From Minisyncoccia bacterium (GTDB lineage Bacteria > Patescibacteriota > Minisyncoccia > Phycocordibacterales > UBA918): a DNA stretch of 64,000 nt. How positions within the stretch are numbered: position 1 is the first letter of the stretch; each line of letters starts with the position of its first letter. Location of the stretch: NCBI GenBank assembly GCA_046598345.1, contig JBKJIT010000004.1, forward strand, positions 137,226 to 201,225, read 5' to 3'. Position numbers and translations under genes: made by a program. Positions 2,624 through 50,807 of the stretch are shown one piece after another. Under the pieces are notes generated by a model. That model saw only the letters and a program-made list of their open reading frames with translations. It was not told where the DNA came from and did no database searches.

Positions 2624-3910
2624 ATGACTATGATCGAAGAAAATATCACACACGCAAAGGACACTGAGATTGGTACCATTCCAAATGTTCGGGGAGGTCG
2701 CAGCTTTCCGCTTCTTGGTATTGGACTTGCGATACTTCTTGCAACAGCGACGTTTTTTTCAGGTATGTATTTGGCCTCAGGTCCAAAGCTTGAAGCGAGT
2801 GTCGGATCGTTTTTCTTGCCACCAGTTGCTGACCCGACAATAAACCTTGATGAATTTTGGCAGGTGTGGAAGTTGCTCGAAGAAAAATTTGCTGCGGGAA
2901 CAACAACGGATCCGATTTCAAATGAGGAACGAATATATGGAGCCATTGAGGGACTTGTTGCGTCCTATGGTGACCCGTACACCGTATTTTTACCACCTAA
3001 GCAAGCAGAACTTTTCGAAGACGATATTTCCGGCAATTTTAGTGGGGTAGGTATGGAGGTGGGTATCCGTGATGATATCCTAACGGTCATTGCGCCGCTT
3101 CCTGAATCTCCAGCAGAAAAGGCAGGTATTCTTGCAGGGGATTACATTGTTCGTATTGATGGAACACAAACAGAGAACATGAGTGTTGACGAGGCGGTGC
3201 GGCTCATTCGAGGAGAAAAAGGAACTGAAGTGAAACTTACGCTCCTCCGTAAAGATACTGAAGAACTCATTGATATTTCCATTGTGCGAGACACGATTTC
3301 AATTCCTACCAGTAAGACTGAGATAAAGGATTCTGTCTTTGTTATTTCACTCTACAGCTTCAATGCGCTTGCGGAGGCAGAGATGCAGGATGCTCTTCGT
3401 CAGTTTGTAAAAAGTGGAAAAAAGCGTCTCGTGCTCGATCTTCGAGGAAACCCTGGTGGGTACTTACAGGGTGCAGTTGGGATTGCGAGTTATTTCCTTC
3501 CCGTTGGAAAAGTGGTGGTGCGAGAAAGCTTCAGTGAGAGCGAAGAGGAGCATGTGTATAGGAGTACCGGAAAAGTAGTAGGAAACTTCAATCCAGACAA
3601 CTTTGTTGTGCTCGTCGACGGTGGTTCAGCCTCCGCCTCAGAGATTCTCGCTGGTGCGTTAAAAGAGCAGGGAGTAGCAACGATTATTGGAGAGCAGACT
3701 TTTGGAAAAGGTTCTGTCCAGGAACTCGTAAATCTTTCGGACGGCTCTTCACTTAAGGTCACAATCGCAAGGTGGCTTACACCAAACGGAACTTCCATTT
3801 CGCTCCAAGGCCTTGCACCAACCATTGAAGTTCTACGTACCGCTGAAGATAGAGAGGCAGAAAAGGATCCTCAGCTTGACGCCGCAATTGATTTCTTGAA
3901 AAAACACTAG
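2624..3910 (+). CDS. ctpA: Carboxyl-terminal processing protease (S41 family) with PDZ domain, N-terminal membrane anchor
   Basis: 428 aa. The segment 'GVGMEVG...ESPAEKAGILAGDYIVRIDG' is PDZ-like, and 'LVLDLRGNPGG...VLVDGGSASASEI' matches the S41 catalytic region. Confidence 0.85.
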   Translation: MTMIEENITHAKDTEIGTIPNVRGGRSFPLLGIGLAILLATATFFSGMYLASGPKLEASVGSFFLPPVADPTINLDEFWQVWKLLEEKFAAGTTTDPISNEERIYGAIEGLVASYGDPYTVFLPPKQAELFEDDISGNFSGVGMEVGIRDDILTVIAPLPESPAEKAGILAGDYIVRIDGTQTENMSVDEAVRLIRGEKGTEVKLTLLRKDTEELIDISIVRDTISIPTSKTEIKDSVFVISLYSFNALAEAEMQDALRQFVKSGKKRLVLDLRGNPGGYLQGAVGIASYFLPVGKVVVRESFSESEEEHVYRSTGKVVGNFNPDNFVVLVDGGSASASEILAGALKEQGVATIIGEQTFGKGSVQELVNLSDGSSLKVTIARWLTPNGTSISLQGLAPTIEVLRTAEDREAEKDPQLDAAIDFLKKH

Positions 3911-3984
3911 ACCACAGGGTGCATTTGAAGCCCAGCGTGAGTTTGATATGATAGCGCGTACACCATTACTAGGTAACCCGGCGT

Positions 3985-4425
3985 ATGAAAGTAATACTCT
4001 TAAAAGATGTGGCCCGCATGGGGCGTCGCGGGGAAATAAAGGAGCTTCCGTCCGGCCATGCGCTTAATTTTCTGATACCTCGAAAGCTTGCAGTTCCTGC
4101 AACGCCAGAAAACCTGAAGCGTCAGCAAGCCCTAATTACAAAGCATAAGGAAACAGCAGAAGCATCGCAAGCTTCATTTAAAGATGCTCTCGCAATGCTG
4201 GCTACAACACCAGTCGAGCTCGCGGCAACTGCGAACGCTAAGGGTCACCTTTTTAAAGGAATCAAGGCGACAGATATCAGTGAGCGACTCCTTGAGCTTG
4301 GGTTTCATATTTCTCCGGAATCCATACATCTTACGGAGCCACTTAAGGCAGTGGGCACGCATGAAGTACCCCTCGTAGCGGGGAAGGAGAAAGGATCATT
4401 CACACTTACAATAATTCAAAAATAA
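3985..4425 (+). CDS. rplI: 50S ribosomal protein L9
   Basis: 146 aa with the typical L9 N-terminus 'MKVILLKDV...G..G'. Confidence 0.9.
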   Translation: MKVILLKDVARMGRRGEIKELPSGHALNFLIPRKLAVPATPENLKRQQALITKHKETAEASQASFKDALAMLATTPVELAATANAKGHLFKGIKATDISERLLELGFHISPESIHLTEPLKAVGTHEVPLVAGKEKGSFTLTIIQK

Positions 4426-4427
4426 CC

Positions 4428-5141
4428 ATGGCAAGTATGAAACAGGTGTTAGGCGTTATTGGAGTCTCTATTCTCATTGTCGGGCTTATTGGATTCTGGG
4501 TAGAATCCAAGCAGGTACCAACAGAAACACCGCTTCTTGCAAACAACGACACACTCCCCGCGCCGCTTGTTGCAGAAGAGCTTGAAATTAATCATCCAGA
4601 TATCACAAATTCTATGAATAGCATTGCAACCGTAGAGACAAATAAAGGCATTATTAAGCTTGAGCTCTTTGAAGATCAGATGCCGATTACAACCGGTAAC
4701 TTCATTAAGCTTGCAAATGAGGGATTCTACAATAACACTAAGTTTCACCGTGTGATTGATGGATTTATGATTCAAGGAGGAGATCCAAACACAAAGACAG
4801 CGAACGTGCAGTCATATGGAACGGGTGGACCAGGGTATACCATTCAGGACGAATTCGTTGCTGGTGAACTCCTTACCAACACGCGCGGTACGATTGCAAT
4901 GGCAAACACGGGTCAACCCAATTCCGGAGGAAGTCAGTTTTTCATTAACACAATCGACAATACACAGCTCGACTTTGATAAGCCACCATTTACATCTCGC
5001 CACCCTGTATTCGGCCGGGTGATTGAAGGAATGGATATCGTGGATGCAATTAGCGGTGTAGAAGTAAACCCGCAATCAAATCTTCCGCTTGAAGCGATTA
5101 CAATTAGTGGAGTAACAATTACAAAACCAGACGCAGAATAA
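4428..5141 (+). CDS. ppiB: Peptidyl-prolyl cis-trans isomerase, cyclophilin type, membrane-anchored
   Basis: Cyclophilin motifs 'FHRVIDGFMIQGGD' and 'GTIAMANTGQPNSGGSQFFIN' follow an N-terminal TM segment. Confidence 0.85.
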   Translation: MASMKQVLGVIGVSILIVGLIGFWVESKQVPTETPLLANNDTLPAPLVAEELEINHPDITNSMNSIATVETNKGIIKLELFEDQMPITTGNFIKLANEGFYNNTKFHRVIDGFMIQGGDPNTKTANVQSYGTGGPGYTIQDEFVAGELLTNTRGTIAMANTGQPNSGGSQFFINTIDNTQLDFDKPPFTSRHPVFGRVIEGMDIVDAISGVEVNPQSNLPLEAITISGVTITKPDAE

Positions 5142-16127: not shown

Positions 16128-17600
16128 TTATTCTCGTATACTAAGAATTGTATCACACGCTCGTTGGACGCGTTTATATGCTTCTCCCGAGCCAATTATT
16201 GAGATGATGGTGAAAGGGTCTGGAGAGCGTTCGCGACCAGAAAGAGCAACGCGAAGTGGCCAGAGTACCTCTCCCCTCCCGATTTCTTCTGCATAGTCCC
16301 ACATATAGGATTTCACAGTCTCCGCGTCTGCCTTTTCAGGAACTTGCGAAAGAATCTCAGCAAGATGCTGGAGGCGAGGAAGCGCATTCTTTGGAGAGGC
16401 GTCGTTTTTCCATTTGAGCAGATCTGCGCTGACTTCAGGTGTAGCAAAGGCAAAATCATACTCCCCTGCCCCACTTTGTTCTCTGATCTCTACTCCTGTG
16501 CTTACACGCTCACGAACGGTAGACATCACCCGTGCAAGTCTCTCCTCACTAAATTGTGGAAGTGAAAAAATGTGTTCACTTAGATAGTTTGTTACAAAAT
16601 TCTGGAAGGATGCGTCGTCGAGGCGTAGAATATGCTCACGGTTAATCCATTTAAGTTTATCTTCGTTCAAGAGCGCTCCTCCAGTCTGGATCCCTTCGAT
16701 TTCGAATTCGGAAATCAGTTCCTCAAGTGAAAAAATTTCTTTGTCTGTACCTGGGTTCCAACCAATAAAGGCAAGAAAATTCACCATTGCTTCTGGAAGG
16801 TAGCCTTCACTCTGATACTCAAGAATATCTTTAGCACCATCACGTTTCCCGAGCTTCTTTGTTTTGTCATCACGAAGTATAGGAGGCAGAGTCACAAATT
16901 TTGGGGGTGTCATACCAAGCGCAGTATAGAGACTGAGAAACCTAGGAGTGCTTGAGATAAACTCATCAGCGCGCATGATGTGCGTCACACCCATTTCGTG
17001 GTCATCGACAATGTGTGCAAAGTTGTAGGTTGGATACCCATCGTGTTTCATGAGCACAAAATCATCGAGCGCGTCTTCGCCAGCTTCGATATCCCCTCGC
17101 ACTTCATCATGCCATGCACTTCGTTCAACTTTCGGAACCTTAAATCGAAGCGTTGTTTTTCCATCCCACACACCAAACTCAGTTGGCCTGTGTTCACGAA
17201 AAAGAAATGGACGATGTTCCAACTTTGCCTGTTCGCGGAATTTCTCAAGTTCTTCCGTTGTGTATGGATCAGGGTAGGCATACCCCTTCTCTACTAGTCT
17301 TCGTGCGTATTCCATATAGATGGGTAGACGCTCAGATTGAATGCAAGAACCAAATGCACCCTGCTTGTCCGGACCATAGTCCCACAGAATGCCGAGCCAC
17401 GTCAGTGTCTTCATAATGTGCTCGATCGATCCTTCTACCTGGCGTTCCTTATCAGTGTCTTCAATGCGCAAAATAAATGTACCTTTGTGCTTCTTTGCCC
17501 ATAGGTACGCAAAAAGTGCAGTGCGTGCACCGCCTACGTGCATATAGCCCGTCGGAGACGGGGCAAAACGGGTCACTACGTGTTCTTTCGTGTTAAACAT
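16128..17600 (-). CDS. gltX: Glutamyl-tRNA synthetase
   Basis: 'TRFAPSPTGYMHVGGART' (HIGH class I) and 'KLGKRDG'-type KMSKS. Confidence 0.92.
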   Translation of the reverse strand: MFNTKEHVVTRFAPSPTGYMHVGGARTALFAYLWAKKHKGTFILRIEDTDKERQVEGSIEHIMKTLTWLGILWDYGPDKQGAFGSCIQSERLPIYMEYARRLVEKGYAYPDPYTTEELEKFREQAKLEHRPFLFREHRPTEFGVWDGKTTLRFKVPKVERSAWHDEVRGDIEAGEDALDDFVLMKHDGYPTYNFAHIVDDHEMGVTHIMRADEFISSTPRFLSLYTALGMTPPKFVTLPPILRDDKTKKLGKRDGAKDILEYQSEGYLPEAMVNFLAFIGWNPGTDKEIFSLEELISEFEIEGIQTGGALLNEDKLKWINREHILRLDDASFQNFVTNYLSEHIFSLPQFSEERLARVMSTVRERVSTGVEIREQSGAGEYDFAFATPEVSADLLKWKNDASPKNALPRLQHLAEILSQVPEKADAETVKSYMWDYAEEIGRGEVLWPLRVALSGRERSPDPFTIISIIGSGEAYKRVQRACDTILSIRE

Positions 17601-26017: not shown

Positions 26018-27484
26018 TTAGAACTTCTCCACAATGGTCACGAGGAGGCGGACAGGTTCTCCAGTTGCACCCTTCGCAAGTTTGTCTGATGCGACCGAGG
26101 TCATGCGAGGAGCCATGTCGATATGTACCCAATTCATTCCTTTTGCAAAGTGTGCGAGGAATGTACCTGCATTTATCGTGCCTCCGTACTTTGAATCACC
26201 AGCAGGAATGTTAGAGATGTCGCCGTGCACACCTTTGATATACGGCGCGTATTCATCCCAGAGTGGAAGCGGAAACACATAATCGCCGCTCTCTTCACCG
26301 AGATCTCGGAACCTATCTTCTAACGCACGATCTTTGGTCATGATGACGCTCGCGTGTTGGCCTATTGCGACGAGTGCTGCACCGGTGAGTGTTGCAACAT
26401 CGACGACGAGTTTTGGATTGTAGCGCTTCGCGTAGTGGAGCGCGTCAGCGAGGATGAGTCTTCCCTCTGCGTCGGTGTGAAGGACGTCTACTGTTGTGCC
26501 AGACATCATTGTAAGCACATCTCCCGGACGCATCGCGCTACCTGAAATTGCATTTTCTGCTGCGGGGATAAGCCCGATCACATTTTTCTTAAGCCCGCGT
26601 TTCGCAATCGCCGCAATCGCTCCGATCACCGCTGCGCCACCAGACATATCCATGTGCATTTCATACATCGCCATCCCAGGTTTTATTTGGAGTCCGCCCG
26701 TGTCGAACGTGATGCCTTTACCGACAAACACAACGGGGTTGTGTTTGTCACTGGTTGTTTTTCTTTGTGCGCCTTTAGCCGCTTTTGTTTTTGTCGTCTT
26801 TGGCTTTCCTAATCCCCAGTATTCAATAACGATAAAACGGGGCGTATCTATTGCTCCCTTCCCTACCCCTAAAACACCCCCCATACCAAGCTTTTCTATG
26901 GCTTTCTCATCAAGTACCGAAACCGTGGCCTTTGTGCCTTTAAGAGCCCTTTTTGCTGCTTCCCCGAGGCCTTTTGGTGTCATGTCGCCTCCAGGAGTAT
27001 TGGCGATGTCCCTTGCTGCGTTAGCCGCCCGGGCATTAACCTCCCCTGCCTCGAAACCAGCCTTAGCCTCAGCACTTCCACTCCCGACGACAACCACTTC
27101 ACTCAGAATTTCTTTTGGTGCCGTACTCTTGTATGCGTTAAATTCGTAGTCTGCGAGTACTACGTTTTCCGCAATGGTTCGGTACGCCCATGCTTCTCCA
27201 TAGGTAGCGAGCCCTGTGTACAGTTCTGACTTAAACTCAAATGCGAGTTTTTGTATTTTGTACTTTTTTGCAGTTTGTACCATTTCACGAATAAGCGTTC
27301 GAAATGTTCGTGGAGTTATCTTTTCGAGCTTTCCAATTTTAAGGTTGAGGAATGTCTTACCGTCTGTTTCCACAAAACGTTCAACTTCTGCTTCACCAAT
27401 TCGCGTGTACGCTCCCGGAAGTGAGTCTATTGATTTATTCGTTAGTTTTATCTGCATTGGTTTCTGGATTAGCGAGTAAGGCAT
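26018..27484 (-). CDS. pepA: Leucyl aminopeptidase (M17)
   Basis: 'NTDAEGRL'-type motif 'HTDAEGRLILADAL' and 'VGKGITFDTGG'. Confidence 0.9.
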   Translation of the reverse strand: MPYSLIQKPMQIKLTNKSIDSLPGAYTRIGEAEVERFVETDGKTFLNLKIGKLEKITPRTFRTLIREMVQTAKKYKIQKLAFEFKSELYTGLATYGEAWAYRTIAENVVLADYEFNAYKSTAPKEILSEVVVVGSGSAEAKAGFEAGEVNARAANAARDIANTPGGDMTPKGLGEAAKRALKGTKATVSVLDEKAIEKLGMGGVLGVGKGAIDTPRFIVIEYWGLGKPKTTKTKAAKGAQRKTTSDKHNPVVFVGKGITFDTGGLQIKPGMAMYEMHMDMSGGAAVIGAIAAIAKRGLKKNVIGLIPAAENAISGSAMRPGDVLTMMSGTTVDVLHTDAEGRLILADALHYAKRYNPKLVVDVATLTGAALVAIGQHASVIMTKDRALEDRFRDLGEESGDYVFPLPLWDEYAPYIKGVHGDISNIPAGDSKYGGTINAGTFLAHFAKGMNWVHIDMAPRMTSVASDKLAKGATGEPVRLLVTIVEKF

Positions 27485-28799
27485 CGATGCGGTTCATATC
27501 GCGTGGGAAGAGGGTCGCTTCTCGAATATTTTTGAGTCCAAGAATTTGCATGGTCATTCGTTCTGCACCAAACGCAAATCCTCCTTCAGGTGGTACGCCA
27601 TATTTGAATGCTTCGAGGAACATTGAAATAGTACTTGGATCCATGTTCCATTTCTCAACGTGATCAAGCAGCTGCGCATAGTCGTTAATGCGGCGACCAC
27701 CTGAGAGCCACTCAATGCCACGACATAGCAAGTCCATACCTTCATTGAACTCTGGCTTTTCTGGGTTTGGATAGATATAAAAAGGTTTCTGTCGCGTAGG
27801 GTACCCATACACATACACAAAGTCTGATCCTGTTTCCTCCTTCACGATTTCACAAATTGCCCGCTCATCTTCCGGACTCAAATCTTTCTCTCCTCGACCA
27901 TCTCGGCCTTTCTTGTTAAAAATCATTTCTTGAGCTTCAGTAAGGGAGAATGTTGGGGTTTTTTCAATCATTACAGGAAGTGTCGCTCCGAGAAACGCGA
28001 GTTCTTTTGCGCACTTGCTTTCTACTGACTCAAGAATGAACCGCACTGTTTCTTCAGACATCATGCGGACGTCTTCCCAAGATTCAATGAAGGCCATTTC
28101 CGCGTCGAGGGAAACAATTTCAGTGATGTGGCGTGTCGTCGCGCTCGGTTCTGCACGAAACACTTTGTTTACGGAAAAAACGCGCTCAAACGCTGTCATG
28201 ACGATTTGTTTGTAGAGTTGTGGGGATTGTGACAAATAAGCCTTCTTGTCGAAGTAGTTTACTTGGAATACCTCAGCACCTCCTTCTGCAGTTGCTGGCA
28301 CGATGGAGGGTGCTTGGAATTCTAAAAATTCCTGACTCTTCATGTATTCCCGGAATGAATCAATGATGACCGCTTGTACTTTGAAAATGGCTTGCAGGCG
28401 TGGATGTCTGAGTGTAAGCGCACGGTGATCGAGCTCGGTCGTGAGATCGAGATTGTATCCTTCAGCAGACATGTCGAACGGAAGCGCCTCTGCTTTGGCG
28501 AGAATTTCAATCCTGGTAATTTCGAGTTCGATGTCTCCGTTTTTTACCTTCGCGTTCACCATCTTTTCTGGCCGTGCATGCACAATGCCGGTTACGGAAA
28601 CAACCCACTCTTGCTTGAGTTCTTGTGCAACGGTAAGTAGTTCGGGTTTTCCAAACACGACTCCTTGTACTTTCCCAGTGCGGTCGCGAAAATCAAAGAA
28701 GGCAACCTTACCCTGATTGCGTGCAACATCAACCCAGCCTTTAATCGTGACTTCTTTTTCTACGCTATTCTTCAGATCTCGTATAAGTGTTCTTTCCAT
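27435..28799 (-). CDS. aspS: Aspartyl-tRNA synthetase, archaeal/eukaryal type (class IIb); possibly non-discriminating
   Basis: 454 aa. Close to archaeal AspRS across the catalytic core ('TAEGGAEVFQV', 'FRAEPSATTRHITE', 'GVPPEGGFAFGAERMTMQILGLKNIREATLFPRD'). Confidence 0.85.
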   Translation of the reverse strand: MERTLIRDLKNSVEKEVTIKGWVDVARNQGKVAFFDFRDRTGKVQGVVFGKPELLTVAQELKQEWVVSVTGIVHARPEKMVNAKVKNGDIELEITRIEILAKAEALPFDMSAEGYNLDLTTELDHRALTLRHPRLQAIFKVQAVIIDSFREYMKSQEFLEFQAPSIVPATAEGGAEVFQVNYFDKKAYLSQSPQLYKQIVMTAFERVFSVNKVFRAEPSATTRHITEIVSLDAEMAFIESWEDVRMMSEETVRFILESVESKCAKELAFLGATLPVMIEKTPTFSLTEAQEMIFNKKGRDGRGEKDLSPEDERAICEIVKEETGSDFVYVYGYPTRQKPFYIYPNPEKPEFNEGMDLLCRGIEWLSGGRRINDYAQLLDHVEKWNMDPSTISMFLEAFKYGVPPEGGFAFGAERMTMQILGLKNIREATLFPRDMNRIDALLANPETNADKTNE

Positions 28800-29027
28800 A
28801 GTGATTAGTTAGAAACGGAAACCGCCCCTATATTATTAGCCAATAATATAGGGGCGGTTGGTGTACCGCGGTGCCACCCTATTTCCCGCCAGCTGGCGGA
28901 CGCTCATTTAGTTCCCTCACCTTACAGGTGCTGTTTGGGTTGTATGATATTTCTCATCGAAATATCGACAACCTCTTGCGCTGCTTCCGCAGCTCACCTC
29001 AGCAGGTGTCAGCTGCGTCTTTGGTTA
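28800..29027 (-). ncRNA. T-box riboswitch leader of aspS (Asp-specific: GAC specifier candidates, UGGC bulge matching discriminator G73)
   Basis: On the minus strand: ...GGAAAUAGGGUGGCACCGCGGUACACCAACCGCCCCUAUAUUAUU.... The T-box consensus is AAUUAGGGUGGNACCGCG. Upstream hairpins include GCAGCUGACACCUGCUGAGGUGAGCUGC (GAC followed by A) and the stem III-like palindrome CGCCAGCUGGCG. Confidence 0.7.
28811..28858 (-). terminator. T-box leader terminator (17-bp perfect stem, UUUCCGUUU tail)
   Basis: accgcccctatattatt-AGCC-aataatataggggcggt. The 5' arm can alternatively pair with the T-box AAAUAGGGUGG to form the antiterminator. Confidence 0.75.
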
Positions 29028-29032
29028 CTATG

Positions 29033-29061
29033 ATTCTATAAGGATTGTTAGGAATGGTCAA
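29033..29061 (-). promoter_or_regulatory. Sigma70-type promoter for the aspS T-box leader (TTGACC-N17-TAGAAT)
   Basis: Read on the minus strand. The -35 overlaps the trpS stop region. Confidence 0.5.
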
Positions 29062-29062
29062 T

Positions 29063-30004
29063 TTAAAGCGTGACTCCAACTTTCTTTCGGACTTCTTGCA
29101 TTTTCTCCCATGCTTGCTCACGAGCGCGCTCTCCACCATCCTTGAGTATGCGCTTCACATCCCCATCACTAATTGCGTCACGTATTGCGCGCATAGGCGC
29201 AATACGTGCTTCGATATCCTCGATGAGTAGTTCTTTCAGATTCTTATACTTTCCTTTGTATTCTTCGTATGGTGCTTCAAGCTCCTTCTCAGTCTTAAAG
29301 AGTTTGTGAATCTCATATACATTTTTAGGCTTGTCTCCGCTTGAGTCCGTGACGATACCCATCACTGCTTTTGCAATCACTGCTTTAGTTCCAAAAAGTG
29401 GAATCGTATTTCCATAACTCTTACTCATCTTCTGTCCATCAGTACCAGGGACAATGCCAACGCCTTTGATTATCTTTTCTTGCGGCGCACCAAATGTCTC
29501 GCCATATGCGAGATTGAACTTAGTTGCTGCTTCTCGCGCATATTCAACATGCTGGCGTTGATCCTCCCCTACAGGTACCACCTCAGTATCATAGAGAAGA
29601 ATGTCAGCTGCCATGAGCATAGGGTAATTAAATAGTCCCGCATTCGCTTCAAGTCCCTTTGCTACTTTGTCCTTGTACGAGTGTGCCTGCATGAGAAATG
29701 GAACGGTAACGAGACACTCAAACATCCATGCGAGCTCGGTGTGTTCCGGCACATCCGATTGTTTAAAAATAATTGCTTCCTCTGGATTTACTCCTACTGC
29801 AATATAGTCTTTCACTACATCAAAAATATTGGTACGGAGAAGTTCAGGATCACGAAGTGTGGTGAGTGCATGGAGGTCGGCTACCATGAGATGGCTGTCG
29901 TATTCTCGATAAATATCAACAAATGGCTTCAGCACGCCGAAGTAATTACCAATGTGTAGGGTGCCGGAGGACTGAAGACCAGTTAAGAGGCGTTTTTTAC
30001 TCAT
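29063..30004 (-). CDS. trpS: Tryptophanyl-tRNA synthetase
   Basis: 'SGTLHIGNYFG' and 'KMSKS'. The start is placed at MSKKRLLTG, because the track ORF is extended upstream. Confidence 0.9.
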   Translation of the reverse strand: MSKKRLLTGLQSSGTLHIGNYFGVLKPFVDIYREYDSHLMVADLHALTTLRDPELLRTNIFDVVKDYIAVGVNPEEAIIFKQSDVPEHTELAWMFECLVTVPFLMQAHSYKDKVAKGLEANAGLFNYPMLMAADILLYDTEVVPVGEDQRQHVEYAREAATKFNLAYGETFGAPQEKIIKGVGIVPGTDGQKMSKSYGNTIPLFGTKAVIAKAVMGIVTDSSGDKPKNVYEIHKLFKTEKELEAPYEEYKGKYKNLKELLIEDIEARIAPMRAIRDAISDGDVKRILKDGGERAREQAWEKMQEVRKKVGVTL

Positions 30005-30083
30005 AGGTAAGATAGTAGCAAAATAATGGTAATTTATGAAGGAATGTGATAAACGAAGGCCGACACGAATGTCGGCCTGGTGT

Positions 30084-31229
30084 TCAGTAATACGCGTCGT
30101 GGTTCCCTGTTCCCGTATGTCGGTTGCAGAGAAGTTCCGGACGCTCACGGAAAAGTTCCACAGTTTTTCGTATCTTAAGGATGTATATTTGGTTCTCTTG
30201 ATTTTTGTTGTGAAGAACCAGGTCGCCGAACTTCCCCAGAATGTTGATGGGTCGTGCGGGTCCTCCATTGTACGAAGAGGCGATGTACTCTATCTGGAGC
30301 ATTTGGTCCGAAAAGACCCTTTCCCTTAGCTTTTTCGGAATACGCGTAAGGTCGTGGTCGAACAGCAAAGCAGCAGCCTTGAGCGAATTGAACGAGTGAA
30401 ATGCCCCTTCCACAAAATCGTGGATGAGTCTCGCTTTCGGATATTTCACCGGTAGCATGTTGTACGTCGGTCGAGTGAACTGCATGTCGCCAAGGGCAAC
30501 AGCAGAACTTTTCGAGTATTTGTATGCTTGATCGCGCATAAATGCAACGCGAGCAAGCACTTCCCCGACAAGCACATGCAAAGGCTCATTTCTAAAGCGT
30601 TCATGGTCAATGTGCTCTACGATGAAAATAAGGAGCAGCAACTCTGAGATGGTTGCATCGCTCACGAGCACCGTCGGGTTTAGCAATGAACGTACGTCGA
30701 GTTCACGCAATTCCTTGAGTGCTGCGTGAATCCGATTGTCGAGGATTGCCTTACCGTAACAACGGACATCGTTTACATTGAGTCCTTCATTAACTCCCGT
30801 AAAAACCTCCTCTTGCAATGGTGTTGATGCTCGACCACGCTTGAGTGCGTATGCACGGTACCCAACCGGTTCAAGAATACTGAACTGAGTTGCGTATCCG
30901 TTCATTTGACCTCTCGAATCGCGCTTACATGCAATTGTGAAGCCTGGGGTCGTGGACTCGCAGGTTGCAGTGTTGAATCGAATGAACTCAAGTGGCTCAC
31001 CCCGATGATGTACAGCAAGAATGCCATGGATCTGGCGTTCAATAGTGCACATCATTTTGCGTTTCTTTTGCTCACAGATCTTCACTTCTTCAGATCCGGC
31101 AATGAACGATGGGTCGGAAAGTACTTCTCGCGCAATATCGGCGAGGAGCACATCCAGTGGCATAGCGCGTGGCTCTACATGCAAAATGCACGCGAGACCA
31201 AATATGATCACTCCGCATACAATTTTCAT
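30084..31229 (-). CDS. Hypothetical secreted protein (signal peptide; C-terminal 'SSYNGGPARP')
   Basis: 381 aa with an N-terminal hydrophobic signal. There is an 'ES...YNGG' spacing, but it is too long for a canonical SLT domain. Confidence 0.45.
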   Translation of the reverse strand: MKIVCGVIIFGLACILHVEPRAMPLDVLLADIAREVLSDPSFIAGSEEVKICEQKKRKMMCTIERQIHGILAVHHRGEPLEFIRFNTATCESTTPGFTIACKRDSRGQMNGYATQFSILEPVGYRAYALKRGRASTPLQEEVFTGVNEGLNVNDVRCYGKAILDNRIHAALKELRELDVRSLLNPTVLVSDATISELLLLIFIVEHIDHERFRNEPLHVLVGEVLARVAFMRDQAYKYSKSSAVALGDMQFTRPTYNMLPVKYPKARLIHDFVEGAFHSFNSLKAAALLFDHDLTRIPKKLRERVFSDQMLQIEYIASSYNGGPARPINILGKFGDLVLHNKNQENQIYILKIRKTVELFRERPELLCNRHTGTGNHDAYY

Positions 31230-38005: not shown

Positions 38006-38052
38006 TTGTAGCAAAAGAAAAAGTCTCCCTGCGGAGACTTTTTCTTTTGCTA
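38006..38052. terminator. dnaJ terminator: 21-bp perfect stem (GUAGCAAAAGAAAAAGUCUCC / GGAGACUUUUUCUUUUGCUAC). A second 8-bp hairpin lies at about 37955-37980
   Basis: Read directly. Confidence 0.65.
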
Positions 38053-39123
38053 CAAACCTTCTTTTTGGAGATCTTCTACCAATTTTCTTGCAGTTCGGGA
38101 TAACTTCTTAGGAATGTCGACGTGGATTTTTACCAAGAAATCACCACGCCCTCCATCTGAAGGCACTCCACGTTCACGAATACGAAGCATTTCTCCGTGC
38201 TTTACTCCTTCTGGAATTTTAATTTTTACGATGCCATCGAGTGTCTCAACTCCGTATGTATTCCCAAGTAATGCGTCAGTGAGCTTAACTGGAAGATTGC
38301 TGAGGAGATTTTTTCCGTCTCGAACAATTGTTTGGTGTGGAGCAACATGGACTTTAATATACAAATCTCCCGGCACTCCTCCCTGTACTGCTTCGCCTCG
38401 TCCTGTCATACGAATCATCTCACCGTGCTCAATTCCTGCAGGAATATTGATATCAATCTGATCCTCTACTTTACGAATACCCTTACCATGACAATCAGGA
38501 CATTTTACCTTTGGCATCTTGCCGAGGGCTCCACACGCTGCGCACTCACGCACTGTAGTAAAGTTCCCCAAGATACTTTGGCGAGTTTCTCGAACTTTTC
38601 CATTACCATTACATACACTGCAGGTCGTCATTTCAGTTCCCTTTTCCGCGCCAGTCCCTGTGCATGTAGAACAGGTATTGTTTTTCATGAGCTTAAGCGA
38701 GCGCTTACTACCGAAAACAGATTCTTTGAATGCAAGTTCGATATCAACGGAAATATCATTGCCGCGTGATTGGCGCTTTCCACTTCGTGCACCTCCTCCG
38801 AAAATATCTCCAAAGTTTTCAAAGATGTCATTGAGGTCAAATTCAACATTTTGAGCATTGAATCCACCCTGAAAACCACCCCAACCAAATGGCCCCTGGT
38901 TTGGGCTTCCTCCACCGCTGTATGAACGGCCATATGCGTCGTATTCCGCGCGTTTCTTGTCGTCACTTAAAATCGAATACGCCTCACTGATTTCCTTGAA
39001 TTTAACCTCATCACCAGTCTTTTTGTCTGGGTGATACTTAGTTGCAAGCTTACGAAAAGCCCGCTTTACCTCGTCTTTTGAGGCTGTTTTTGTAATCCCT
39101 AGAATAGTGTAGTAATCCTTCAT
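38050..39123 (-). CDS. dnaJ: Chaperone DnaJ
   Basis: J-domain 'YHPDK', G/F region and four CxxCxGxG zinc-finger repeats. Confidence 0.92.
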   Translation of the reverse strand: MKDYYTILGITKTASKDEVKRAFRKLATKYHPDKKTGDEVKFKEISEAYSILSDDKKRAEYDAYGRSYSGGGSPNQGPFGWGGFQGGFNAQNVEFDLNDIFENFGDIFGGGARSGKRQSRGNDISVDIELAFKESVFGSKRSLKLMKNNTCSTCTGTGAEKGTEMTTCSVCNGNGKVRETRQSILGNFTTVRECAACGALGKMPKVKCPDCHGKGIRKVEDQIDINIPAGIEHGEMIRMTGRGEAVQGGVPGDLYIKVHVAPHQTIVRDGKNLLSNLPVKLTDALLGNTYGVETLDGIVKIKIPEGVKHGEMLRIRERGVPSDGGRGDFLVKIHVDIPKKLSRTARKLVEDLQKEGL

Positions 39124-48749: not shown

Positions 48750-50726
48750 TTACTCGATTACTGCTTTGATGCGACGAACGCCCTGAGATGATGCTTCTTC
48801 TTTTATAATTTTGAACACACCGGTAATTGTTCCTGTGTTTTCTACGTGAGGCCCGCCACATAGTTCTCTTGAGTACACATTCCCCATTGTATCTTTGATC
48901 GTATACACGTGTACGGTATCTGGATATCGGTCCCAAAAACTTCCTTCAATAGTTGTGTCAGTCTCAGCCACACTCTTCTCGAGCGTTTCTGTGGTTACGT
49001 AAGCTCCAGCTTTGATTGCATCATTAACGTACTGCTCAACACTTCTCAAAACTGTAGCGTCAACTTTTCCGTTGTAGGTGAAGTCAAAACGAAGTCTTTC
49101 ATTGGTTATATTCGAGCCAGCTTGATGCACTCCTGTCCCCAGTTCTTTACGAAGGCCCGCAAGAAGGAGATGGGTTGCGGTGTGGTAACTCACCACTTTT
49201 TCTGAATGATCTGCCAGACCGCCTTTAAATTTTTGCTCAGCTCCTTTTCGTGAAAGTTCACGGTGCGCTTCCATGAGTTTCTTAAACCCACCGCGATCCA
49301 CCGTCAGTCCCTTTTCCTTTGCAATTTCTTCAGTAAGTTCAATAGGAAATCCGTACGTTGTAAAAAGCTCAAACGCGTTCTCCGCACTAATTTGCTTCTT
49401 TCCCGTCACCTCAGAGCGCTGCTTTGTATATAGTTGCTTTCCTTTGACAGTAATTGGAACGTTAAACTCATTAGAACGCTCTGTCTGTGTAGGGAGATCG
49501 ATGCGAAGAGAGATCTTATTGAATTGCTTGAGCCCCTGCTCAAGTGTCTTTCTAAACTGTGTTTCTTCCTCGGCGATAACTTCCTTGATCTTAGTCCTTG
49601 CGGTTTCGAGTTCTGGATATGCATCTTTAAAGAGCTCGATTACTGATTCACTAATATTCGACAGCTCATTCACTGGAACCTCAAGGACGTCAGCATACCG
49701 TACCGCTCTTCGGAGGAGACGCCGCACAAAATATCCTTGGTCGCTATTTGATGGGTACACTCCATCTCCAATCATGAGTACTGCTCCGCGGATGTGGTCT
49801 GAGATGATACGAAATGGAGTCTTGTTGCCCTCATACTTTTTTCCAGAGACAGCCTCAATACGTTCAATGATCTTTGCGAGAAGATCGACTTTAAACATGT
49901 CTGGCTCGTTGTTTGCTGCAGCAGCCATACGCTCAAGTCCTCCGCCAAAGTCAACGTTTTGCGCAGGAAGTTTCGCGAAGCTACCGTCAGCCTGCTTGAT
50001 GTATTCCATAAAGACCGAGTTTCCGATCTCCATGAATCGGCCACAGTCGCAATTCGGATGACAGTGCGCACCAAACCTTGTATCGTGCTCTGTCGCAAAA
50101 TCGTAAAAGACTTCGCTGTCTGGCCCTCCTGGCTCTCCAGGAGGCATGTTTCCAGGGACGCCAGCTCTACTCCACCAGTTTTTTTTCGCCTCGTAGTAAA
50201 AAATACGTTCGCCTTCTTTTATTCCACGCTCTCCGCCACGAGCTTCAGAGCCAATATGTGCAACCAGAGAAGAAACACCTCTTTCTAAAAATAATTTCTG
50301 TAAAATGGCGACGGCCTCATCGTCTTTAGGAAGATTGTGTGTTTCGTCTCCAGCAAAGACTGATGCATACAGGCGCGCCGGGTCGATATGGAGTTCATCA
50401 ATGAGAAACGTGTAAATCCATGTGAGCTGCTCTTCTTTGAAATAGTCACCGAGGGACCAGTTCCCAAGCATTTCGAAAAAAGTTGTATGACGATTATCTC
50501 CCACCTCTTCTATATCTTCAGCACGAAAGCATTTTTGTGAATCTGCGATACGTGTCCCCTTGGGATGTGATTCACCAAGTAAGTACGGAACCATAGGTTG
50601 CATACCGCTTCCCGTAAATAAAGTAGTGGGGTCATTTTCAGGCACGAGACGAGATGACGGAATAATTGCATGCCCGTGCTGCGCCATAAAATCGAGGTAT
50701 TTCTTTCGGATATCGTTTCCTGACAT
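48750..50726 (-). CDS. alaS: Alanyl-tRNA synthetase, short form (about 658 aa; catalytic plus editing domains, no long C-terminal extension)
   Basis: 'FTGSGMQP' (FTNAGM-type) and the editing-domain 'HTATHLL'. The start is placed at MSGNDIRKKYLDF. Confidence 0.88.
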   Translation of the reverse strand: MSGNDIRKKYLDFMAQHGHAIIPSSRLVPENDPTTLFTGSGMQPMVPYLLGESHPKGTRIADSQKCFRAEDIEEVGDNRHTTFFEMLGNWSLGDYFKEEQLTWIYTFLIDELHIDPARLYASVFAGDETHNLPKDDEAVAILQKLFLERGVSSLVAHIGSEARGGERGIKEGERIFYYEAKKNWWSRAGVPGNMPPGEPGGPDSEVFYDFATEHDTRFGAHCHPNCDCGRFMEIGNSVFMEYIKQADGSFAKLPAQNVDFGGGLERMAAAANNEPDMFKVDLLAKIIERIEAVSGKKYEGNKTPFRIISDHIRGAVLMIGDGVYPSNSDQGYFVRRLLRRAVRYADVLEVPVNELSNISESVIELFKDAYPELETARTKIKEVIAEEETQFRKTLEQGLKQFNKISLRIDLPTQTERSNEFNVPITVKGKQLYTKQRSEVTGKKQISAENAFELFTTYGFPIELTEEIAKEKGLTVDRGGFKKLMEAHRELSRKGAEQKFKGGLADHSEKVVSYHTATHLLLAGLRKELGTGVHQAGSNITNERLRFDFTYNGKVDATVLRSVEQYVNDAIKAGAYVTTETLEKSVAETDTTIEGSFWDRYPDTVHVYTIKDTMGNVYSRELCGGPHVENTGTITGVFKIIKEEASSQGVRRIKAVIE

Positions 50727-50807
50727 ACGGAGGTCACTATACAAGAAAATATGCTAGAAAAAAAGCGTTCGTTCTGATGATTTCATAAGTGATACATTTT
50801 GCCCGCC

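Follow-up and report, generated by a model that had tools for sequence, protein, structure and literature searches.

The 64,000-nucleotide stretch of Minisyncoccia bacterium contig JBKJIT010000004.1 analysed here (the window) carries on its minus strand the gene aspS, which encodes an aspartyl-tRNA synthetase (AspRS), and directly upstream of it, at 28811-29061, a leader whose elements run from a promoter to a terminator tail and are those of a T-box riboswitch. The 454-aa open reading frame (ORF) of aspS, whose ATG lies at 28799, scored 465.7 bits against the NCBIfam profile NF003483, aspartate--tRNA(Asn) ligase (cutoff 353), and 383.7 bits against TIGR00458 (cutoff 368.4), both of them profiles of the archaeal-type, non-discriminating enzyme, and far under the cutoffs for the asparaginyl-tRNA synthetase and for the bacterial AspRS. 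The gene upstream is trpS, with its stop codon at 29065-29063 (minus strand). An initial annotation had described an archaeal-type aspS behind a T-box leader; the two profile scores agree with its view of the gene, and every leader element that it named was found on the minus strand where it had been placed. The features are listed below in the direction of transcription.

29056-29061, minus strand: -35 hexamer TTGACC (promoter scan)
29033-29038, minus strand: -10 hexamer TAGAAT, 17-nt spacer from the -35
28996-29025, minus strand: ultrashort Stem I (sequence and covariance model (CM) alignment of 24 leaders)
29025-29023 with 28998-28996, minus strand: C-stem of the kink-turn (K-turn), ACC with GGU
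29022-29020, minus strand: K-turn bulge AAA, with the tandem GA at 29019-29018 and 29000-28999
29016-29013 with 29005-29002, minus strand: Stem I helix, GCAG with CUGC, plus a C.U mismatch
29012-29006, minus strand: 7-nt terminal loop of Stem I, CUGACAC
29010-29008, minus strand: specifier GAC (Asp codon), with the conserved 3' purine A at 29007 (loop conservation)
28918-28995, minus strand: variable middle (Stem II-region) domain (folding, repeat search)
28992-28981, minus strand: middle-domain hairpin CUGC-GGAA-GCAG, flanked by GAG and CGCAAGA
28973-28938, minus strand: long middle-domain hairpin GGUUGU...ACAACC, holding the 8-bp repeat 28966-28959 / 28953-28946
28934-28918, minus strand: candidate IIA/B-like pseudoknot, ACAGCACCUGUAAGGUG
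28905-28901, minus strand: linker end GAGCG, the RRRNG motif
28900-28885, minus strand: Stem III, UCCGCC-AGCU-GGCGGG, 6 bp, then AA (folding)
28884-28866, minus strand: T-box region, AAAUAGGGUGGCACCGCGG
28867-28880, minus strand: exact 14-nt T-box, AGGGUGGCACCGCG (motif match)
28848-28882, minus strand: antiterminator (fold without the terminator 3' arm)
28882-28877 with 28853-28848, minus strand: antiterminator helix A1, AUAGGG with CCCUAU
28876-28870, minus strand: 7-nt T-box bulge, UGGCACC
28869-28866 with 28857-28854, minus strand: antiterminator helix A2, GCGG with CCGC
28811-28859, minus strand: intrinsic terminator (perfect inverted repeat, minimum free energy (MFE) fold)
28859-28842 and 28837-28820, minus strand: terminator arms, 18 bp, 100% complementary, with the loop GGCU at 28841-28838
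28819-28811, minus strand: U-rich tail of the terminator, UCCGUUUCU
27435-28799, minus strand: the regulated aspS, archaeal-type AspRS, predicted non-discriminating, 454 aa (NCBIfam profiles)

Elements of the aspS leader

The promoter matched 10 of the 12 consensus positions and was the top promoter-like site between 28600 and 29300, in agreement with the TTGACC-N17-TAGAAT promoter first proposed, and transcription is predicted from it to start at about 29026, 0-3 nt ahead of Stem I. A TTGAC -35 was found equally distant from Stem I in most homologous leaders, together with a TAnnnT-like -10 that ends 7-10 nt ahead of the K-turn (window included). This conserved promoter at a constant distance fixes the 5' end of the leader and leaves no room upstream.

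The RNA of 29025-28996 reads ACC-AAA-GA-CGCAG-[CUGACAC]-CUGCU-GA-GGU, in which the K-turn has its textbook form, a 3-nt bulge between a Watson-Crick stem and tandem G.A pairs. Across the aligned leaders the A-C-A of the loop is invariant and the U-G nearly so, while the loop itself comprises 6-7 nt in most leaders and up to 9 nt in a few. The distal Stem I platform for tRNA-elbow docking (AG bulge and distal loop, forming interdigitated T-loops) is not present. Since the promoter leaves no upstream room, the loop is tiny and the Rfam alignment deletes the distal part, Stem I is truly ultrashort, and the specifier therefore sits in its terminal loop. The GAC(A) specifier of the initial annotation was thus placed in Stem I, but in an ultrashort and not a canonical one. 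A basal K-turn, a codon followed by a purine and the agreement of that codon, GAC, with the amino acid of the downstream AspRS, which together characterise the Stem I of a T-box, were all found. The order of the loop (U, codon, purine) also parallels U33, anticodon and R37 of a tRNA anticodon loop, which in bacterial tRNA-Asp typically reads C-U-G-U-C-A-C; as a hypothesis only, up to five Watson-Crick pairs might form, U-GAC-A against U33-GUC-A37.

A structured stretch of about 90 nt separates Stem I from the Stem III region and consists in the window of two hairpins and a pseudoknot candidate, with no recognisable Stem II bearing an S-turn. The S-turn consensus AGUA/GAA was looked for in the window's middle domain and not found, and RNAalifold on the window and one related leader (L002; two sequences) gave no resolved fold for this domain. 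The candidate pseudoknot ACAGCACCUGUAAGGUG is identical in L002, both of whose hairpins show compensatory changes by eye, and some relatives show, again by eye, S-turn-like (AAGAAAA / GAGUAGAA) and F-box-like (CCGUUA) motifs. The middle domain may correspond to Stem II and IIA/B.

The downstream half carries the arrangement 5'-RRRNG-Stem III-AA-3' as it was defined for T-boxes (PMC7778990), with GAGCG before Stem III and AA after it, followed by AUAGGGUGGCACCGCGG; the pairs of Stem III (helix 3) covary in relatives where they could be aligned. The canonical 14-mer AGGGUGGNACCGCG had a single exact match in the 64 kb against 0.03 expected by chance, and what had been read as a near-consensus T-box proved to be an exact one. 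When the leader was folded without the terminator 3' arm, the MFE structure was the antiterminator, with A2 folded as GCGG(U) with (A)CCGC, and when it was folded in full, the terminator formed instead (-91.9 kcal/mol, z = -7.2 against shuffles). The two structures are mutually exclusive because the 18-bp hairpin consumes both 3' strands of the antiterminator, giving the 7-nt UGGN bulge antiterminator in competition with a downstream terminator that is expected of a T-box. The alternative pairing of the terminator 5' arm with the T-box, first suggested together with a 17-bp terminator, is borne out by these two folds and by the covariation of the antiterminator helices A1 and A2; the perfect inverted repeat is one base pair longer than first stated, and UGG takes no part in the pairing with that arm. 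It is left in the bulge, available to the CCA end of a tRNA, and UGGC (28876-28873) would pair with the 3'-ACCG-5' end.

The upper part of the terminator stem is a conserved AU-rich palindrome (…UAUAUUAUU / AAUAAUAUA…, or UAUUAGUAAUAAUAU), observed at 28829-28850 of the window and in the related loci L005, L006, L018, L025, L034 and L053, and it is kept even where the lower, G+C-rich half varies.

Infernal reported nothing in the window at the Rfam gathering thresholds. Under E-value reporting, RF00230 (T-box) was the only significant family and by far the best, with 45.7 bits (E = 5.7e-9 when 501 nt were scanned, 7.3e-7 for the entire window), and the match ran end to end, model positions 1-219 over 28847-29030 (minus strand). 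Its discriminator half is near-perfect, while positions ~21-94, the entire distal Stem I (74 positions), are replaced by 5 nt. The T-box suggested by the initial annotation was therefore recovered by the Rfam model as a significant full-length match that lies below the gathering score (45.7 against 93).

Related leaders and their covariation

AspRS-guided scans of genome and metagenome collections yielded 60 loci, about half of which carry a leader with the layout of the window: promoter, K-turn, short helix, YUGACA(M) loop, variable middle, Stem III, T-box and long hairpin. The design is shared by 23 related leaders upstream of aspS, from metagenome-assembled genomes (MAGs) of Patescibacteria and from metagenomes. 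In the genome collection, which holds one genome per species, all 29 loci with related AspRS genes belong to Patescibacteria, or Candidate Phyla Radiation (CPR), or to unclassified bacterial MAGs, with the host labels Kaiserbacteria, Paceibacterota, WWE3, Minisyncoccia and "Saccharibacteria". As related AspRS were found in no other hosts, the genome was correctly called CPR-like at the outset.

A custom covariance model (R1) built from nine related leaders gave 24 matches in 361 kb, exactly one per locus, all on the coding strand and ahead of the AspRS gene, directly so in all but L035, where the match lies ~400 nt upstream of aspS with inserted sequence between; the window leader scored 65.2 bits (E = 6.5e-15). 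On 14 relatives scanned, RF00230 gave 31-42 bits for ten and no match at E <= 0.01 for the other four, and threshold-based annotation misses this patescibacterial family because its members score 31-46 bits where they are detected at all.

Covariation was assessed over 25 modelled pairs in 23 distinct homologous leaders, with 500 shuffles, on a CM-based alignment (A3), which was used because MAFFT had misplaced the 3' arm of Stem I in five leaders with 6-nt loops. Standard pairs occupied 93% of the cells, compared with 81% after shuffling of the columns and 35-48% after sliding of the partners by 1-3 columns; 19 of the 25 pairs change on both sides, and none of the 500 shuffles reached any of these measures. 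Stem I was aligned essentially gap-free. Its helix (helix 2) is paired in 96.7% of cells with all four pairs changing on both sides, in the forms GCAG/CUGC, GUGG/CCAC, ACAG/CUGU, GCGG/CCGC, GCUG/CAGC and CCGG/CCGG, so that the terminal loop of a covarying K-turn hairpin can accommodate GAC. Antiterminator helix A1 is 99.3% paired, with four of six pairs covarying and variants such as GUAAGG/CCUUAC and GCGAGG/CCUCGC, and A2 is 95.7% paired.

The 5' arm and loop of Stem I at 29008-29017 of the window (CGCAGCUGAC) show 90% complementarity to 28988-28997 (GUGAGCUGCG), on the 5' side of the hairpin that comes next. This cross-pairing is absent from L002 and may be a coincidence or a folding trap specific to the window. 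Two pairings from the MFE fold of the single sequence were considered and rejected: CACCU/AGGUG was 65% paired on the CM alignment, showed no compensatory change and did no better than shuffles, and CGCAGCU/AGCUGCG is impossible in L002, where the P2 arm, AAACGGG, lacks complementarity to Stem I.

Among the relatives the middle domain is strikingly plastic, while Stem I and the discriminator are conserved. In ten close relatives (AspRS up to ~90% identical) only a 16-27-nt linker lies between Stem I and Stem III, and Stem II and IIA/B are wholly absent; the leaders of such minimal relatives comprise 83-123 nt, counted from Stem I to the antiterminator. In two leaders, L016 (2863-2945) and L035 (1001-1103), Stem I leads to the T-box with no Stem III in between; they span 83 and 103 nt, respectively. 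The Stem I helix of L016 has only 2-3 bp and its loop 9 nt, whilst the terminator of L035 lacks a U-tract and is separated from aspS by ~330 nt of extra sequence.

Other relatives (L003, L004, L007, L011, L042, L046, L050 and L060) are leaderless, with aspS beginning within a few bases of the trpS stop codon, and no T-box was found in the 1.5-3 kb upstream of their aspS. The T-box is therefore patchy among close relatives, having been inserted or lost between trpS and aspS.

The leader of L027 (2720-2896) stands before a gene (3001-4446) for a bacterial-type AspRS of 481 aa (NF001750, 568 bits, cutoff 443), which matches the profile in two stretches, the usual insertion domain seemingly missing. 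An assignment of this gene as asnS was considered and rejected, as the NCBIfam profiles show a bacterial-type AspRS. Its Stem I loop, CAAACA, has AAC (Asn) at the position occupied by GAC in all the other leaders. Going by the codon, the L027 AspRS gene may be tuned to tRNA-Asn charging, which would fit a non-discriminating enzyme in the transamidation route.

Proposed control of aspS and alternative explanations

We consider it very probable that the leader is a tRNA-Asp-specific T-box riboswitch controlling the archaeal-type patescibacterial aspS by transcription attenuation. From T-box biology we infer that a tRNA binds and which one, where transcription starts, that it terminates, and any role of the middle domain; the anticodon GUC and the discriminator base G73 are general features of bacterial tRNA-Asp. 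Transcription would start at about 29026 from the sigma-70-like promoter, and the first 30 nt would fold into the ultrashort Stem I, a K-turn and a 4-bp helix closed by the 7-nt loop CUGACAC, which would display GAC and its 3' purine in the way an anticodon loop displays its three bases. tRNA-Asp would pair through its anticodon GUC with GAC, and the lineage-variable middle domain, with its two hairpins and pseudoknot candidate, may buttress this short duplex. Downstream, the RRRNG linker, Stem III and the T-box bulge UGGC would form a canonical discriminator. With uncharged tRNA, the 3' end G73-C-C-A would pair with UGGC and stabilise the antiterminator, and RNA polymerase would read into aspS; with charged tRNA, the 18-bp terminator would form and transcription would stop within the U-rich tail, at 12-22 nt upstream of the ATG.

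Several observations weigh against this reading. ARAGORN detected no tRNA-Asp in the window or the 60 loci, finding only two tRNA-Thr, none of them in the window. The U-tract of the window is interrupted (UUUCCGUUUCU), a simple terminator scan missed the 18-bp hairpin, and this tail is where the case for a transcriptional switch is weakest. The RF00230 score is half the Rfam gathering threshold, because the ~74 distal Stem I positions of the model are absent. In the single-sequence MFE fold, 28988-28997 takes up the 5' arm of Stem I, which then does not form, and the specifier is buried because Stem I and the next hairpin share GCAG/CUGC pairs, in exchanged positions. As the covariation alignment had been fitted to the model, the modelled structure is favoured. 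Finally, according to a 2020 review, transcriptional T-boxes generally need a long Stem I with an elbow-binding platform, since contact with the elbow hastens capture of the tRNA while the polymerase has yet to arrive at the terminator (PMC7583486).

The imperfect U-tract of the window lends some weight to a translational T-box like the actinobacterial ultrashort ileS class, in which the long hairpin would sequester the ribosome-binding site, and all T-boxes with ultrashort Stem I described so far are translational (bioRxiv 10.1101/2023.02.28.530422; PMC7583486). We regard this as very unlikely given the position of the hairpin, which in the window (-27.4 kcal/mol) ends 21 nt before the aspS ATG and holds no Shine-Dalgarno-like sequence. 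In 21 of the 23 relatives a U-rich tail, with 2-8 U among the first 9 nt, directly succeeds a hairpin of 11-28 bp (-17.6 to -41 kcal/mol), and 20-76 nt of unstructured RNA then lead up to the ATG, and the only clear Shine-Dalgarno sequence, AGGAGG in L016, falls outside the hairpin. An ordinary long-Stem-I T-box, whose distal Stem I has diverged beyond recognition or lies farther upstream, could explain why the Rfam alignment covers all 219 model positions, but the same alignment swaps 74 of them for 5 nt, and the hairpin loop has just 6-7 nt in the majority of leaders and never exceeds 9 nt. Upstream, the conserved -10 box ends 7-10 nt before the K-turn in the window and its homologues and the trpS stop codon of the window lies 2 nt upstream of the -35, and this explanation seems to us extremely unlikely.

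A decaying T-box relic that no longer regulates would account for the leaderless state of about half of the related aspS loci, where aspS directly follows trpS, and for the damaged terminators of two relatives (L001 and L035). We give it very little credence, as promoter, K-turn, GAC loop, T-box 14-mer and terminator are retained in 23 distinct sequences whose AspRS differ by up to ~35% (65% in L027, which is unlike the archaeal type), with compensatory changes in 19 of the 25 pairs. The tRNA-Asp-specific transcriptional T-box is thus preferred over all three.

What is new here is the architecture, a transcriptional tRNA-Asp T-box with an ultrashort Stem I in a patescibacterial family, a combination of ultrashort Stem I and terminator that reviews regard as disfavoured (PMC7583486). 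Judged from its sequence, the leader appears to work without the part thought necessary for transcriptional control. Whether Patescibacteria possess a T-box class of their own, transcriptional and with an ultrashort Stem I, in which Stem II, IIA/B and even Stem III are dispensable and gained or lost between close relatives, seems to us an evenly balanced question. If so, these would be the smallest natural T-boxes known, with 83-123 nt against ~166 nt for an ileS T-box construct from Mycobacterium tuberculosis (PMC11297988). If the leaders work, tRNA-elbow docking would not be obligatory for co-transcriptional tRNA sensing, and the codon-anticodon and UGGN-NCCA duplexes would suffice, perhaps with the U-GAC-A/U33-GUC-A37 loop-loop pairing. 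The finding would also place T-box regulation in the CPR, a very large group, mostly uncultivated, for which few regulators are known, and as the family is invisible to threshold-based Rfam annotation, riboswitch censuses of the CPR are likely to undercount. The natural series of 83-236 nt, in which Stem II, IIA/B and Stem III are variously present or absent in nearly the same genetic context, constitutes a ready deletion series, suited to the question of the minimal tRNA-sensing RNA and offering compact parts for engineered tRNA-responsive switches.

Within the window, T-box control is specific to aspS: neither Rfam nor the custom CM detected a second T-box in the 64 kb, despite the presence of other aminoacyl-tRNA synthetase genes. 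These genes are given below.

16128-17600, minus strand: gltX
29063-30003, minus strand: trpS
48750-50744, minus strand: alaS, short, 664 aa
62061-63992, minus strand: leuS

The mechanically called trpS ORF (29063-30268, minus strand) has 401 aa, with homology to the tryptophanyl-tRNA synthetase beginning only at residue 89, and its start is probably the ATG at 30003 (MSKKRLLTGLQSSGTLHIGNY), upstream of which lie a terminator-like hairpin (aggccgacattcgtgtcggcct followed by a T-run) and a promoter-like AT-rich stretch. Because there is no terminator between trpS and the aspS promoter, readthrough from trpS would also meet the T-box. Elsewhere in the window, weak ctRNA_p42d matches (26-27 bits on both strands, gathering score 50) were observed at 38011-38050, just upstream of a dnaJ ORF (38050-39123, minus strand); the site is most likely a palindromic hairpin rather than a ctRNA.

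Comparison with known T-boxes

In full-text literature, coverage of which was incomplete so that an earlier description is possible, no paper on T-boxes in Patescibacteria or CPR was found, and searches on ultrashort Stem I and terminal-loop specifiers returned only the actinobacterial ileS class and unrelated Firmicutes T-boxes. The T-box database TBDB looked for its translational (class II) model only in Actinobacteria (PMC7778990).

With the canonical transcriptional T-boxes (RF00230; Bacillus subtilis tyrS and glyQS) the window leader shares the basal K-turn, the codon with its 3' purine, the RRRNG-Stem III-AA arrangement, the 14-nt T-box with a UGGN bulge, the antiterminator competing with an intrinsic terminator and the position upstream of an aminoacyl-tRNA synthetase gene. 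It differs from them in lacking the distal Stem I (S-turn specifier internal loop, AG bulge, distal loop and T-loop platform), in bearing its specifier in a 7-nt terminal loop and in its host, which belongs to Patescibacteria and not to Firmicutes. The discriminator half is that of a fully ordinary T-box, while the decoding half resembles only the ultrashort class.

The ultrashort (US) Stem I class is described as translational, limited to actinobacterial ileS and bearing its specifier in the terminal loop (bioRxiv 10.1101/2023.02.28.530422), with members in Mycobacterium and Nocardia (Sherwood et al. 2015, summarised in PMC7583486 and bioRxiv 10.1101/2023.02.28.530422). The window leader has the Stem I by which this class was defined (bioRxiv 10.1101/2023.02.28.530422), and both have a short Stem I, a terminal-loop specifier ~16-19 nt from the 5' end, no elbow-binding platform and a canonical discriminator. 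However, the expression platform of the window is a terminator hairpin with a U-rich tail well upstream of the ATG and not a Shine-Dalgarno sequestrator, the gene is aspS with GAC in place of ileS with AUC, and the phylum is Patescibacteria. Stem II with its S-turn, reportedly indispensable in the actinobacterial class (PMC7583486), which lacks the elbow-binding platform and so comes to depend on Stem II, is not recognisable in the window.

Among transcriptional T-boxes, glyQS has a domain order like that of the minimal relatives (L030, L031, L033, L048, L049, L053, L021, L022 and L052), namely Stem I, a single-stranded linker, Stem III and the antiterminator. Yet glyQS compensates by a long Stem I for docking of the tRNA elbow; the minimal relatives have neither Stem II nor a Stem I of that kind, while the window's own leader keeps a structured middle domain. 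An Asn-specific T-box on a non-discriminating AspRS/GatCAB operon was reportedly described in Clostridium acetobutylicum by Saad et al. in 2013; it is relevant only to L027, where the T-box ahead of an AspRS gene has AAC at the specifier position, whereas the specifier of the window is GAC (Asp) and its architecture is different.

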